This document shows positions 34,603 to 41,864 of a DNA stretch of 64,000 bases, one piece after another (positions within the stretch are counted from its first letter, which is position 1; each line of letters begins with the position of its first letter). The position numbers and the translations under genes were made by a program. This DNA comes from Parachlamydiales bacterium (GTDB lineage: Bacteria > Chlamydiota > Chlamydiia > Chlamydiales > Rhabdochlamydiaceae). Under the pieces are notes generated by a model that ran no database searches, was not told the DNA's origin, and was given only the letters and a program-made list of their open reading frames with translations. The stretch is from assembly GCA_963705295.1 (NCBI GenBank), contig OY970065.1:800001-864000 (forward strand). Direction: 5' to 3'.

Positions 34603-35811
34603 ATGAAAACAATTGTACAGTATGCGTCAAAAAATGTTGCACGCATCTCGATTTTAGCTCTTGCCTGTATTCTTGGAGTCCTGACGTATAACAAATGGAA
34701 TAAAGAATTAAAGATTATCAAGAGCAATTTGAAGAGACTTTCCATGGGACAGCCTCTAAAAGGAAAAGAGGCTCTATCGAATAAAGATATTCCTTTATCC
34801 ATGCGGCTCCCCAGAGCACTTCAGAGAGTTCCTATGGCAGATAAAAAAGGGATTGTGCTCAGTACAAAAACCATTGCAATACGGAATGTCGTCGCTCCTT
34901 ATAATGCATCGATCATAGAAAAGGATGACGGAGATGGATATTTCATGTTTTTCCGTTATGATATCCTTCTTTCTCATCGGTCTCTTCGTGCGAGGTTCCC
35001 ATTTTTCACCAATATCGGATGCGTAGAACTCGATGAAAATTTTGAGCAGACTGAAAAAGAATTTGTACGGATCGATACGCGGAGCAGTTTTTCTGAAGAC
35101 CCCCGTGTCATTCGCGTAAAAGATAATTTATTTATTTCTTATAATGATCTTCTGACAGATTCGCATGATGAAAGAGCTATTCGTATTGCATGTCTCGATT
35201 CCAAGACCCTGCAAACGAAATACATCACCGAATTAGATCTTCATAATCAACATATAGAGAAAAACTGGGTTCCTTTTTGTTACGAATCGGAAAATGGGAA
35301 AGAGGAAATCTATTTTGAGTACGAGCTTCAACCGCATAAACTCTATAAACTTCAAGATCCTAAAACCAACTCAATGGTTCGGATGATCTATCCTAAAGGG
35401 CCACGCCTCCAGACGATACCATGGCCAGGATGTTGGGGAACTCCTCGTGGAGGAACACCTCCTCGCTTAGTGGATGGGCAATATCTGGCTTTTTTCCACA
35501 GCTCATTTAGGGATGAATCAGGTGTGCCTTGTTATGTCGTAGGAGCCTATACTTTTGATGCTCATCCTCCTTTTAAAATAACGAGCATTTCTAACCACCC
35601 GGTTGTTTTTGAAGGAATTTATGAAACACCCCCTATCAACACGGCCCCTATCAATCTCAATTGCTTATTTCCAGCCGGTTTTGCTTTGGGTAAGAAAAAT
35701 GGAAAAGATGTGATCCATATTTCTTGTGGAGAAAATGATTGTGCAGTCAAGGTTGTTACGGTTGATAAAGCAACCTTATTCAAAAACATGAAGAAGATCA
35801 AACCATCCTAG
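34603..35811 (+). CDS. Membrane-anchored five-bladed beta-propeller carbohydrate-active protein (GH130 / beta-1,2-mannosyltransferase-like)
   Basis: YNASI, SEDPRV, IEKNWVPF, RGGTP, FFHS, FPAGF, SCGENDC; N-terminal TM ISILALACILGVLTY. Confidence 0.65.
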   Translation: MKTIVQYASKNVARISILALACILGVLTYNKWNKELKIIKSNLKRLSMGQPLKGKEALSNKDIPLSMRLPRALQRVPMADKKGIVLSTKTIAIRNVVAPYNASIIEKDDGDGYFMFFRYDILLSHRSLRARFPFFTNIGCVELDENFEQTEKEFVRIDTRSSFSEDPRVIRVKDNLFISYNDLLTDSHDERAIRIACLDSKTLQTKYITELDLHNQHIEKNWVPFCYESENGKEEIYFEYELQPHKLYKLQDPKTNSMVRMIYPKGPRLQTIPWPGCWGTPRGGTPPRLVDGQYLAFFHSSFRDESGVPCYVVGAYTFDAHPPFKITSISNHPVVFEGIYETPPINTAPINLNCLFPAGFALGKKNGKDVIHISCGENDCAVKVVTVDKATLFKNMKKIKPS

Positions 35812-35817
35812 TGCTCA

Positions 35818-37080
35818 ATGCTCCTTAGAACATTTGTGAAAAGGGGCATATGTGTTTTGGGAATAGTCAGTGCCTGTTTTTTAACATACTCCCTCTATTT
35901 TCGGTATGGGCATCGACCCGATTTAACCGTTTGTGGTTCTATTGATTTCGCTGATGGGATTGGGAGACAATCTCTCGAGCTCATGGATATCTTTAAAGAT
36001 GAGTTGAGCATCAGCTTTATACCGACGAGATCGAGCAAATTTGCAGATGTTCCTGACAATTTAAAGAAAATCGCCAGTGCGAAGCGGAATCGTTTTGGTA
36101 AAGTCATTATTTTCGAAGATTTGATCTGGTGGCCCAAAGAAGAAAAATATCGAAAAATTGTTTCCCCTGCCGCTGAATCTTCAGTCAAAATTGCCTATTC
36201 GATGTTCGAGTCGACACAAATCCCTCCCGAATGGGTCATCATTTTGAATCAATATTTTGATGCCGTGATTGTTCCGGATAAATTTTTAGTAACGGTTTAT
36301 CAGGAGAGCGGTGTCAACATCCCTGTCTTTGTGATTCCTTTGGGTCTTAATCTGCAGCCAATGTTAAACCAACCGTTGAAGCAAAAGCGGCATCATCCGT
36401 TGGTGTTTGGAAATTTGGCTGCTTGTAGTGATCGAAAAAATCAACTTCTTCTCGTCAGAGCGTTTGCTAAAGCTTTTGGTAATAATCCCGATGTTTGCCT
36501 GCGCATCAATTGTCGTGGAGGAGAGAGGGATGTGAGTAACGCAATCACAAAAGAGATTACAACGCTGGGATTGAAAAATGTTCAGTTTACCCAGTTCTCT
36601 TTGAATCGTGAAGAATATCTCCGCTTATTTCAGGAAATCGATTGTCTTGTCAATATCTCTAAGTCGGAAGGGTTTTCAATCCAGACTAGGGAAGCAATGG
36701 CCCTTGGTATTCCCGTCATAGCAACCCGTAATACGGCGCAAGAGACCGTTTGTGAAAGTCGATTGATCCGGAGTATCGACTGTCCTTTTAAAGAGCCTTT
36801 TATTTCCCCTTGGGGCGATTCGTACGGTTTTGCCTTCAATTGCACCGTGGATGCGGTCGTCGATGCTCTTTACGATGTTTATTTTAATTATGACCACTAT
36901 CTTCAAAATGGACCCCTTGCAAGAAAATGGGCCTCTCAGTATCAATATGAAAATTTGAGGCCTTTATACAAATCGTTCGTTCGCCCAAGACAAATTTCCT
37001 TGGGTCAGGAAAATGTTGTGACGGAAAAAGGCCTCATAACGACATCTGAAAAATTGATACAGAAGTATCGATACAGATAG
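35818..37080 (+). CDS. GT-B glycosyltransferase (GT4-like) with N-terminal membrane anchor
   Basis: DGIGR, DRKN, SKSEGFSIQTREAMALGIPVIAT; N-terminal GICVLGIVSACFLTYSLYF. Confidence 0.85.
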   Translation: MLLRTFVKRGICVLGIVSACFLTYSLYFRYGHRPDLTVCGSIDFADGIGRQSLELMDIFKDELSISFIPTRSSKFADVPDNLKKIASAKRNRFGKVIIFEDLIWWPKEEKYRKIVSPAAESSVKIAYSMFESTQIPPEWVIILNQYFDAVIVPDKFLVTVYQESGVNIPVFVIPLGLNLQPMLNQPLKQKRHHPLVFGNLAACSDRKNQLLLVRAFAKAFGNNPDVCLRINCRGGERDVSNAITKEITTLGLKNVQFTQFSLNREEYLRLFQEIDCLVNISKSEGFSIQTREAMALGIPVIATRNTAQETVCESRLIRSIDCPFKEPFISPWGDSYGFAFNCTVDAVVDALYDVYFNYDHYLQNGPLARKWASQYQYENLRPLYKSFVRPRQISLGQENVVTEKGLITTSEKLIQKYRYR

Positions 37081-37096
37081 TTCATGGAGGTACATT

Positions 37097-40068: not shown

Positions 40069-40078
40069 TTTCTTTTTT

Positions 40079-41020
40079 TTATTTCTTCTCTTTATCGAGA
40101 TAGTAAGGCGCCCCGTTATCGGAGATGGCCTTCGGCAGTGTTGATACGACATCTTCTCGAACGGTATAGATTTTTATACCAGGATGCAGATAGTTATCCA
40201 TGTCGTAAGGGAGAAAGATATGGTAGGTTTTGATGAAATCGAGAATCTTCATCATACCCGATCTTCGAACAATCATTGAATAAGCCCCATAGCGAGCACT
40301 AATCCGTCTAAAACTCTTACTGATATTGGTCCGGAAACGGAAAATAAGTGGATCTTCAGGTTTAAAATTGGGCCTTGGAGAAAATGAGAAACAACCGACA
40401 TAGTTGCCCTGCTGATCCTTCGTATCTGGATCTGTGAACAGGATATCCCAGTTGTCTTTACCGACTAGTTGATCTAATTTTTCGATATATCTGGAGAGCT
40501 TATGGGGATTTTGAATGATTTTAATATCATCTTCCATCACCCAGATCGTTTCATATCCAGAATCCACCGCATCTTGCAAAATGGACAAGTGGCTTAAAAC
40601 AATCCCAATGGCCCCTCGAGACATGGCATGGCAAAAATACGTTTGGCCAAAGTTTTGTAGAAAGTGGGGTTCAATGTATTCGGTTGCTGCTCCTCCGTTT
40701 TCTGGAAGATAGCTGGTTGCTTTAATATTGCAATCCATGCCAGGCGTAAGTCTTACGCCGACATCGTTGATCGTGGCTAAGGACAGCTCCCACCCATTGA
40801 CAGCTGAGAATCGAAACGGATGAATTCCGTACGGTTCGAGTTCTTTTTTACAATGTTCAAATTTTTCGGGTCTTTGATCCAAGTTGATCACATAAATGAA
40901 ATCGATATTTTTCATCGAATGACAGGGTCCTTTCGAGGAAGGATCGATCTTTTTGAAATGGTCTTGAACTTCAGCTTGTAAGACAAGTGTTGCAAGGCAA
41001 AATAGAAAATATTTCAACAT
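40079..41020 (-). CDS. Glycosyltransferase family 25-like protein with signal peptide
   Basis: IYVINLDQRPEK, RFSAVNG, GAIGIVLSHL, VMEDD, GAYSMIV, PYD; start ATG 41020, MLKYFLFCLATLVLQA. Confidence 0.85.
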   Translation of the reverse strand: MLKYFLFCLATLVLQAEVQDHFKKIDPSSKGPCHSMKNIDFIYVINLDQRPEKFEHCKKELEPYGIHPFRFSAVNGWELSLATINDVGVRLTPGMDCNIKATSYLPENGGAATEYIEPHFLQNFGQTYFCHAMSRGAIGIVLSHLSILQDAVDSGYETIWVMEDDIKIIQNPHKLSRYIEKLDQLVGKDNWDILFTDPDTKDQQGNYVGCFSFSPRPNFKPEDPLIFRFRTNISKSFRRISARYGAYSMIVRRSGMMKILDFIKTYHIFLPYDMDNYLHPGIKIYTVREDVVSTLPKAISDNGAPYYLDKEKK

Positions 41021-41021
41021 T

Positions 41022-41864
41022 TTATTCCTCGGAGTCTGGTTTTTTGAATAAAAAGCATGTTTCGGTCGACTTTGCGAGGTCTTTTTCACAAGAGTCATAC
41101 AGCAATTTAAGGGCAGCATGTGTCGACGACCAGTTGACATCATCAAACCAAATATACCCATTCTTTTTGACCTTGGGTAAATACATCTGTACATCTTTCA
41201 AGGAGACTAACTCTGTATGATTCCCATCGATATGGAGGATATCGATCGATTCATCCGGAAACATACTCAATGCTTTTTCAGATGTCATGGGCATAGTGAC
41301 ACAAAAATCAGACACCTCTTTTTGAACCATTTTTTCTTTAAAATCGTTATAGATGAACTCGAGTTGGGATTTTTCTTTCCACCACTGACAGTTTGGATCA
41401 TTAGGATCGTAACCCACGGCACACTCGTCGGGAGACCAAGGATCGATAGCAAAAATGACGCCAGCCCCTAAATACTTTAAAGCGGATGCTGTTGGATGGA
41501 TCGATTTACCGCCAAAAACACCGATTTCGACACACACCTTGGATTTGGTTTGATAGATCAATTCCATCATCTTGAGAGCTTTTTCAGGAATACACCATCC
41601 ATGAAAATCTTTATTCTCTCGAAGGGTATCAATCTTATAGAGTTCCCAAGGGAAGGTGAGGGGGACAGATTCGGGTCGATTGATAATCGTATAGAACTCT
41701 GCATAAGGTTCTTCTTTTTCTATCTCTGGTTCTTCCTCAGGAGCTGTCGTTAATTCTTCCTCCACAAGGGTTGAGTCAGTAGAGTTTTCTTCTTCAGGGA
41801 CATCTTGGAATGCGTGAAGAGCCAAGTTCAGTGTCATTGCTGTAATTATAAATAATATTTTCAT
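41022..41864 (-). CDS. Class I SAM methyltransferase (Methyltransf_24-like) with signal peptide and acidic linker
   Basis: VCVEIGVFGGKS, AIDPW, IDILHIDGNH, IWFDD; AAGGAG Shine-Dalgarno; MKILFIITAMTLNLALHA. Confidence 0.85.
   Translation of the reverse strand: MKILFIITAMTLNLALHAFQDVPEEENSTDSTLVEEELTTAPEEEPEIEKEEPYAEFYTIINRPESVPLTFPWELYKIDTLRENKDFHGWCIPEKALKMMELIYQTKSKVCVEIGVFGGKSIHPTASALKYLGAGVIFAIDPWSPDECAVGYDPNDPNCQWWKEKSQLEFIYNDFKEKMVQKEVSDFCVTMPMTSEKALSMFPDESIDILHIDGNHTELVSLKDVQMYLPKVKKNGYIWFDDVNWSSTHAALKLLYDSCEKDLAKSTETCFLFKKPDSEE

Follow-up and report, generated by a model that had tools for sequence, protein, structure and literature searches.

A chlamydial island of glycan-building and glycan-decorating enzymes with predicted export signals

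In bacteria, Leloir glycosyltransferases, S-adenosylmethionine (SAM)-dependent methyltransferases, sulfotransferases and 3'-phosphoadenosine-5'-phosphosulfate (PAPS) synthase are cytoplasmic, a textbook location explained by their donors being made and kept in the cytoplasm. Here, we analysed a locus of seven open reading frames (ORFs), g1 to g7, found at positions 34603-41864 of a 64,000-nucleotide window from a Parachlamydiales bacterium (contig OY970065.1, here G000:C1:800001-864000). A GH130/BMT-like propeller, a GT4 enzyme, two sulfotransferases, two Methyltransf_24 proteins and a GT25 enzyme are encoded there, each beginning with a hydrophobic segment that resembles an export signal or a membrane anchor. 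We hold it reasonably likely that g1-g7 are Sec-exported glycan-building and glycan-decorating enzymes organized in two convergent operons and, judging from sequence, a glycan is probably assembled or modified by the bacterium beyond its cytoplasm. The evidence comes from the conservation of these segments across Chlamydiota, from their rarity in other lineages for two of the families, and from a PAPS synthase elsewhere in the genome that starts with a segment of the same kind. The genome is a single 2.13-Mb contig, 94.7% complete; in public collections, Chlamydiota metagenome-assembled genomes (MAGs) come closest to it.

Seven enzymes with signal-like N-termini in two convergent operons

The plus-strand genes g1-g5 follow each other at distances of 6-16 nucleotides (nt), and g7-g6 form a minus-strand operon in which the ATG of g6 lies 1 nt past the stop codon of g7:

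34603..35811, plus strand: g1, predicted membrane-anchored GH130/BMT-like five-bladed beta-propeller, 402 residues
35818..37080, plus strand: g2, GT4 (GT-B) glycosyltransferase with a predicted N-terminal anchor, 420 residues
37097..37957, plus strand: g3, sulfotransferase with a signal-peptide-like N-terminus, 286 residues, GTG start after GGAGG
37970..38839, plus strand: g4, sulfotransferase paralog of g3 with a signal-like N-terminus; translation could alternatively begin at a TTG (37964)
38852..39616, plus strand: g5, Methyltransf_24 protein, SAM-dependent (probably sugar O-) methyltransferase, predicted signal ending in SLQA
39617..40078: spacer of 462 nt between the convergent operons, with dispersed palindromic repeats
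40079..41020, minus strand: g6, GT25 (GT-A) glycosyltransferase, predicted signal MLKYFLFCLATLVLQA
41022..41864, minus strand: g7, Methyltransf_24 methyltransferase, predicted signal MKILFIITAMTLNLALHA with an acidic linker behind it

Apart from antisense overlaps, the locus holds no further ORF of at least 80 residues; a flippase, a polymerase and a nucleotide-sugar gene are therefore all absent from it, as a preliminary description of this DNA had stated.

Signals were called by a rule requiring an uncharged 11-residue window of mean Kyte-Doolittle hydropathy >=1.9 inside the first 35 residues. This rule flags 7/7 proteins of the locus and 0/4 cytoplasmic neighbours (groEL, murF, rsmI and coaX), against a genome background of 451/1577 approximate genes (29%), or 534/1577 (34%) if any start within the first 40 codons is counted. 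The corresponding p-value, ~2e-4 to 5e-4, assumes independent genes, and neighbouring genes are not independent. Motifs resembling a Shine-Dalgarno sequence are found upstream of the starts of g1, g3, g4, g5, g6 and g7, that of g7 being an AAGGAG placed 8 nt before its ATG (41864). The segment of g1 is an uncharged span of ~20 residues with basic flanks on either side, and a basic helix follows this transmembrane (TM) segment.

We also looked for true starts downstream of the hydrophobic segments, and judged them unlikely. For g3 and g4 they were rejected because the next in-frame start lies beyond the PAPS-binding loop, and for g5 and g6 they are improbable because homologs conserve short motifs immediately after the signal. 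These motifs are SLEYG in the sulfotransferases, [DE]-H-[FL]-K-K in the GT25 proteins and W-[ND]-P in one Methyltransf_24 group that includes g5. The signal-like or anchor-like N-terminus that had been claimed for every one of the seven proteins is thus supported by hydropathy and by starts that are mostly preceded by a Shine-Dalgarno-like motif.

The hydrophobic segments are conserved across Chlamydiota

Homologous ORFs were collected by tblastn in 92 chlamydial loci, after removal of duplicates and of hits shorter than 450 nt. A signal-like segment is present in 17/17 sulfotransferase ORFs (one more being undecidable), 54/55 GT25 ORFs, 84/90 GH130-like ORFs and 17/19 GT4 ORFs, both GT4 misses being fragments. 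The Methyltransf_24 family gives 34/42, with one more ORF undecidable and with half of the eight misses (4/8) belonging to a subgroup that truly lacks the segment. Several unflagged homologous ORFs are signal-like by eye. The segments are kept at 40-60% identity across deep chlamydial divergence, which argues for selection.

In the sulfotransferase, GT25, GT4 and Methyltransf_24 families the median uncharged span is 16.5-19 residues, and the N-terminal flank is more positive than the C-terminal one in 76%, 72%, 71% and 82% of cases, respectively. Such a charge bias and such spans resemble those of Sec signals or of anchors with the N-terminus inside, and an N-in/C-out topology is thus predicted for these four families.

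Family and fold assignments

The glycosyltransferase and methyltransferase identities first proposed for g2, g5, g6 and g7 all stand above their Pfam thresholds. The GT4 protein g2 matches PF13692 (E 8.7e-14) and PF00534 (E 7.1e-13) with 52.4 and 48.9 bits for cut-offs of 27 and 26.4, and its translation contains an E-x7-E signature (EGFSIQTRE). For g6, the match to PF01755 (E 2.3e-12) reaches 47.7 bits for a cut-off of 24, and the translation holds a DxD-like EDD motif (VMEDDIK). Those of its 1892 homologs that are named belong to Chlamydiae, and the only relative among Protein Data Bank (PDB) entries is human COLGALT1 (E ~1e-4). The Methyltransf_24 proteins g5 and g7 match PF13578 with E 3.3e-11 and 1e-16 (44.5 and 62.1 bits, cut-off 26.3) and carry the glycine-rich SAM motif VEIGxxxG, as VEIGAFTG and VEIGVFGG. 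Weak matches of g5 are RMNT_CmcI and the rhamnosyl O-methyltransferase NF045824; g7 gave 0 matches against PDB sequences.

The propeller assignment of g1 is supported by its structure model. The Pfam GH130 match of g1 itself (E 0.0063; 15.9 bits, cut-off 26) is under the gathering threshold; its AlphaFold2 model (pLDDT 90, pTM 0.85) has as best Foldseek match the GH130 beta-1,2-mannoside phosphorylase 9fj8 (E 5e-13, probability 1.0, target-normalized TM-score 0.68), followed among others by 7fip (TM-score 0.72) and the Leishmania GT108 mannosyltransferase MTP 6q4x. In an alignment of 37 GH130-like relatives, 31/37 match PF04041 at E<=0.01 (best 4.7e-10) and 7/37 match the fungal Golgi beta-mannosyltransferase family BMT (PF12141). 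The family profile matches 7fip (E 1.5e-6) with SEDPR aligned on VEDPR, and D166 and R168 are invariant in the 37 sequences; we take the catalytic aspartate to lie in this EDPR motif. From the model, g1 is a candidate beta-mannoside phosphorylase, mannosyltransferase or hydrolase. Note that GH130 also holds beta-1,2-mannoside hydrolases (entry 5a7v is among the Foldseek matches of g1), for which no activated donor is required.

The paralogs g3 and g4 share ~55% identity. Their family comprises 57 more proteins in a word-indexed search and 2344 representative clusters at E<=0.001 in an exhaustive one. Pfam detects it poorly: g3 matches PF17784 below the cut-off (E 0.0036), g4 has no match, PF00685 is present in one homolog, and the family profile gives 0 matches to PDB sequences at E<=1. 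For the structure model (pLDDT 91.4), the top 24 of 48,161 chains are all PAPS sulfotransferases (Z 10.2-6.8), among them cytosolic SULTs, TPST1/2 (Z 10.2 and 10.1) and heparan-sulfate enzymes. The Foldseek top 50 are likewise all sulfotransferases, the best E-value being weak (2e-3). An alignment of 33 sequences retains ERCSGS and RNPYDWxRS, resembling the 5'-phosphosulfate-binding (5'-PSB) and 3'-phosphate-binding (3'-PB) motifs; we presume that these are the PAPS-binding motifs. E40, R41, G44, K66, H67, R101 and S109 are invariant in these 33 sequences. The two folds that had been suggested, GH130 propeller for g1 and PAPS sulfotransferase for g3/g4, are therefore both recovered by the models.

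In two families the tag appears to be a chlamydial addition

The distribution of the signal outside Chlamydiota was examined for sulfotransferases and GT25 proteins. For the former, an alignment of 33 relatives starting at the catalytic domain was run over genomes and viral contigs, and the ORFs were examined upstream of the P-loop. A signal-like segment is present in 15/17 chlamydial members of the superfamily (10/12 named loci, and 5/5 loci inferred to be chlamydial from their contigs); of the two named misses, one has no start in view and the other is signal-like by eye. Among other named bacteria and archaea (Planctomycetota, Rhodobacterales, Bacteroidota and others) the count is 1/58, among unlabelled loci 2/5, and on viral contigs, many of them giant-virus MAGs, 0/80.

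For GT25, the comparison sample was 250 Alphaproteobacteria (251 genomes including the centre genome). Only 4/30 ORFs are flagged, three being real anchors and one a false call by eye, and 26/30 begin at the catalytic domain; the five genomes reached via sulfotransferase loci yielded one weak GT25 match only. The three anchored alphaproteobacterial proteins (L325, L330 and L332) come from genomes of 1.4-1.9 Mb, a small size that hints at host association. The rarity of the signal outside Chlamydiota indicates that the tag was added in the chlamydial lineage in at least these two families, and the expectation that such enzymes are normally cytoplasmic elsewhere holds for both.

These counts bear on the origin of the N-termini. 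The genes could have been acquired from eukaryotes or giant viruses, the anchors being functionless remnants of a Golgi type II topology. This would fit the BMT matches, the ER-lumenal human COLGALT1 as the only solved relative of GT25 (ER, endoplasmic reticulum) and, as a lead only, an Atlas neighbour cluster of the sulfotransferase that is mostly Nucleocytoviricota. We consider this explanation very improbable: a signal found in 0/80 viral-contig and 1/58 other bacterial or archaeal sulfotransferases points to addition in chlamydiae rather than inheritance, and the selection suggested by the retained segments does not fit functionless remnants.

A variable genomic position and a recurring gene set

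The locus lies between an rsmI-like gene and murF, downstream of a sulfate permease:

29593..31161, plus strand: SulP-family sulfate permease with a STAS domain (PF00916 3.3e-92, PF01740 2e-14)
33560..34369, minus strand: rsmI-like methylase, left island border (PF00590 5.2e-28)
41979..43295, plus strand: murF, right island border

Both borders could be seen in 13 relatives. The rsmI-murF gap is below 0.5 kb in 5/13, 1.2-1.7 kb in 3/13, and 3.6-4.1 kb in 4/13 (L145, L146, L147 and L152, i.e. G002, G008, G009 and G021), where it contains none of the five families; since these four relatives hold other DNA there, insertion seems to have recurred at this site. Only G006 (L020) has a related island at the site, with GH130-like, GT4 and GT25 genes, and a search of 40 close relatives did not return the sulfotransferase. 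The island thus occupies a variable gap, and these data support the accessory status that had been put forward for it.

The enzyme set is widespread in Chlamydiota and is no single-strain oddity. The surroundings of 75 GH130-like loci, nearly all from Chlamydiota MAGs, were examined to a distance of 10 kb: GT25 genes occur at 32, Methyltransf_24 genes at 30, GT4 genes at 13 and a sulfotransferase at 1. All five families occur on contig L013, accompanied by two pyruvyl-transferase-like genes and a further methyltransferase, and most of the encoded proteins have signal-like N-termini. P0161, a metagenomic protein of 586 residues matched by the GH130-like query over 84% of its length, also matches PF01755 (GT25); the combination in one protein argues that the two activities act together. 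At GH130-like loci (L020-L094), hydrophobic N-termini are also found in most of the counted Methyltransf_21, PS_pyruv_trans, GT90, GT92 and Methyltransf_23 proteins, and an RXYLT1-like protein, Wzy_C and GT9 genes likewise recur around chlamydial GH130-like genes. Note that the local background is high, as 710/1333 ORFs (53%) at these loci are flagged by the any-start rule.

Beside this enzyme cluster, contig L013 also encodes two large proteins (L013:322-2076 and L013:2134-4362) composed of a Pro/Thr-rich mucin-like stalk, one TM segment and a tail, with no Pfam match, which are possible acceptors in that genome. A search for acceptors in the window genome returned one weak P/T/S-rich ORF only.

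Sources of the donors

Outside the window, at G000:C1:394073-395773 (L097:1006-2709), the genome encodes a protein made of PUA_2, ATP-sulfurylase and adenosine-5'-phosphosulfate (APS)-kinase domains, i.e. a bifunctional PAPS synthase, with the motifs HRAH, GRDHAG and GLSGAGKST (P-loop) intact. Its likely start, MNILVWMLLSWITCQA, places a 16-residue signal-like segment ahead of the PUA domain. Chlamydial copies were found at 30 loci, two of them 5'-cut, and a signal-like N-terminus is present in 25/28 evaluable copies, that of the window genome included. Directly downstream, the ORF at L097:2758-3645 has a signal-like N-terminus and a weak match to the choline/ethanolamine-kinase family PF01633 (E 4.6e-4); it is possibly another exported kinase-like enzyme.

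In a phylum sample of 400 genomes, a sulfotransferase was found in 33, a PAPS synthase/APS kinase match in 49 and both in 8, the match spanning the kinase domain alone in 4 of these 8. With only 8/33 paired, the sulfotransferases of most genomes would not depend on PAPS made by the bacterium, in keeping with a supply from the host, bearing in mind that the genomes are incomplete and that a single query was used.

The C-terminal domain of SAM synthetase (PF02773) has no match in the 94.7%-complete window genome, and at least four TLC-family nucleotide transporters are encoded. The earlier suggestion of host-derived donors thus meets a mixed picture: the missing PF02773 match agrees with it for SAM, whereas an export-tagged PAPS synthase is present and nucleotide-sugar enzymes without a tag are encoded by the bacterium itself.

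A model for glycan tailoring outside the cytoplasm

From these data we infer export, compartment, donors, acceptor and product as follows. The N-terminal anchors would tether g1 and g2 to the inner membrane, and g3-g7, with signal peptides of the cleavable type, would be periplasmic or be passed on, e.g. by type II secretion, to the inclusion lumen. GT4, GT25 and the GH130/BMT-like enzyme would add hexoses, the last by a beta-mannosyl-type transfer, and O-methyl groups and sulfate would be placed on a glycan of the bacterial envelope or on vacuolar material. PAPS would be provided by the export-tagged PAPS synthase using ATP and sulfate outside the cytoplasm. SAM would come from the host, as proposed because of the missing SAM synthetase match, and nucleoside-diphosphate (NDP) sugars from the host or by another route. 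We suggest, more tentatively, that all this amounts to a Golgi-like maturation line for glycosylation, O-methylation and sulfation, working in the periplasm or the lumen of the inclusion, where PAPS would be produced locally, with ATP, SAM and nucleotide sugars from the host, and with signals that were added in chlamydiae to otherwise cytoplasmic enzyme families.

Several observations weigh against tailoring outside the cytoplasm. The signal calls come from an in-house hydropathy rule, charge bias and conservation, and the rule also fires on Rossmann N-termini, flagging 7/9 proteins of an epimerase cluster. The GH130-like proteins have flanks that are more positive on the C-terminal side in 48% and on the N-terminal side in 35%; this bias is ambiguous, and their catalytic domain could face the cytoplasm. 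Among the enzymes of nucleotide-sugar synthesis, there are 5 NTP_transferase matches, one interrupted by two in-frame TGA codons, as well as 17 epimerase matches; the 4 and 12 ORFs checked, respectively, are all untagged and start at the catalytic domain. These form a contrast to the tagged enzymes, yet they fit a cytoplasmic chemistry, as would the SulP permease 3.4 kb upstream of the island, a possible sulfate supply for it. In addition, the pairing of sulfotransferase and PAPS synthase is loose (8/33 genomes), and the mucin-like proteins of contig L013 have no tblastn match in the window genome, where no acceptor was identified.

These points lead to the main rival explanation, in which the anchors hold the enzymes on the cytoplasmic face of the inner membrane, where a lipid-linked or lipopolysaccharide (LPS)-core glycan would be decorated with bacterial NDP-sugars, SAM and PAPS and then flipped. 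Besides the bacterium's own untagged nucleotide-sugar enzymes, the permease beside the island and the ambiguous g1 charge bias, it draws on GT9 heptosyltransferase and Wzy_C/O-antigen-ligase-like genes near GH130-like genes (6 loci each) and on the three alphaproteobacterial GT25s that are also anchored. However, the positive N-terminal flanks and short spans of four families predict N-in/C-out, a soluble nucleotide-making enzyme such as PAPS synthase needs no tether and carries its segment in 25/28 copies, and no PF02773 match was found in the genome. Leaving the four-family charge bias and the tagged PAPS synthase unexplained, decoration on the cytoplasmic face seems unlikely to us. What had been described as extracytoplasmic tailoring thus keeps its footing in conserved, lineage-specific signals with an N-in/C-out bias in four families, and is left ambiguous as to the orientation of the GH130-like enzyme.

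The target could also be different. After Sec export the enzymes might be released by type II secretion or in vesicles, reach host glycoconjugates or the host cytosol, and remodel host or inclusion-membrane glycans instead of the bacterial surface. NDP-sugars, SAM, ATP and sulfate are all host-cell metabolites, and the 25/33 sulfotransferase-bearing genomes without an APS kinase match fit host PAPS. GT90, GT92 and RXYLT1-like proteins, which are mostly of eukaryotic ER/Golgi families, are co-located at other chlamydial loci, and the genome encodes type II secretion components, with GspF and a neighbouring secretin gene at 272-275 kb. On the other hand, g1 and g2 resemble membrane anchors, not cleavable signals, and would remain with the bacterium, and neither a host-targeting motif nor a host-like acceptor was found. 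We rate remodelling of host glycans as somewhat less probable still than decoration on the cytoplasmic face. The window itself contains a secretin-domain ORF at 16668-17180 (PF00263 E 2.1e-38, open frame of 525 residues), separate from the type II cluster (272-275 kb) as well as from the 1128-residue secretin at 102 kb.

Relation to known systems

The proposed extracytoplasmic tailoring by g1-g7 has its closest counterparts in two systems. The eukaryotic ER/Golgi line resembles it in domain order, with a short N-terminal tail, a hydrophobic segment and a catalytic domain, in combining glycosylation, sulfation and methylation, and in folds and families, which match TPST1/2, COLGALT1/GT25 and BMT/GT91. 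The locus differs in that its signals belong to the Sec pathway of a bacterium, in that Golgi transporters for nucleotide sugars or PAPS are not in view, and in that the sulfotransferase signal appears to be a chlamydial addition. The chlamydial PAPS synthase is tagged, whereas the eukaryotic one is cytosolic.

The second counterpart, and the closest one in print, is Chlamydia trachomatis, which is described as secreting glycogen enzymes into the inclusion lumen and importing UDP-glucose there (Gehre et al, 2016, eLife, PMC4829429). Both cases would place carbohydrate enzymes outside the chlamydial cytoplasm, in C. trachomatis with a host-derived nucleotide sugar in the vacuole (PMC4829429). 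They differ in that type 3 secretion is the reported route of the C. trachomatis enzymes and glycogen their product (PMC4829429), whereas the present locus has predicted Sec-type signals or anchors and a set made up of GT4, GT25, a GH130/BMT-like enzyme, O-methyltransferases and sulfotransferases, with a tagged PAPS synthase elsewhere in the genome.

At the level of single families, g1 shares the five-bladed propeller and the aligned EDPR with GH130 enzymes and the Leishmania GT108 MTPs (9fj8, 7fip, 5a7v and 6q4x), and departs from them by its N-terminal TM segment and basic helix, its sub-threshold Pfam score and its operon with transferases. Similarly, g6 belongs to the same Pfam family (PF01755) as the GT25 galactosyltransferases of bacterial lipooligosaccharide and LPS and has the EDD motif, but 26/30 alphaproteobacterial proteins start at the catalytic domain while 54/55 chlamydial ones have the signal-like extension, with [DE]-H-[FL]-K-K behind it.

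In the literature covered, which leaves most subscription journals outside, we found no description of export-tagged glycosyltransferases, sulfotransferases or PAPS synthase in chlamydiae; the account of the Parachlamydia GT6, in the passages covered, makes no mention of a signal (PMC3516806). What appears new here is the bifunctional PAPS synthase with a predicted export tag, given the signal-like start in 25/28 copies. If the model is true, an obligate intracellular bacterium treats its surroundings as a compartment stocked with metabolites, and the idea developed for C. trachomatis glycogen would extend to a far broader chemistry and to most environmental chlamydiae. Methylated and sulfated glycans would then be predicted on chlamydial surfaces or within inclusions, which bears on the small molecules of the inclusion lumen and on how chlamydiae present themselves to their protist hosts.

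Repeats in the spacer between the operons

A scan for promoters and terminators gave fewer sites than shuffled sequences. In the spacer (39617-40078), a 29-nt direct repeat flanks two long inverted repeats, with arms of 60 nt at 93% and 35 nt at 94% complementarity. These repeats are dispersed, with 135 blastn rows genome-wide of which ~30 are near-full copies of a 187-nt unit. A second palindromic repeat unit is repeated in tandem near 1,984,245-1,984,922 of the genome.

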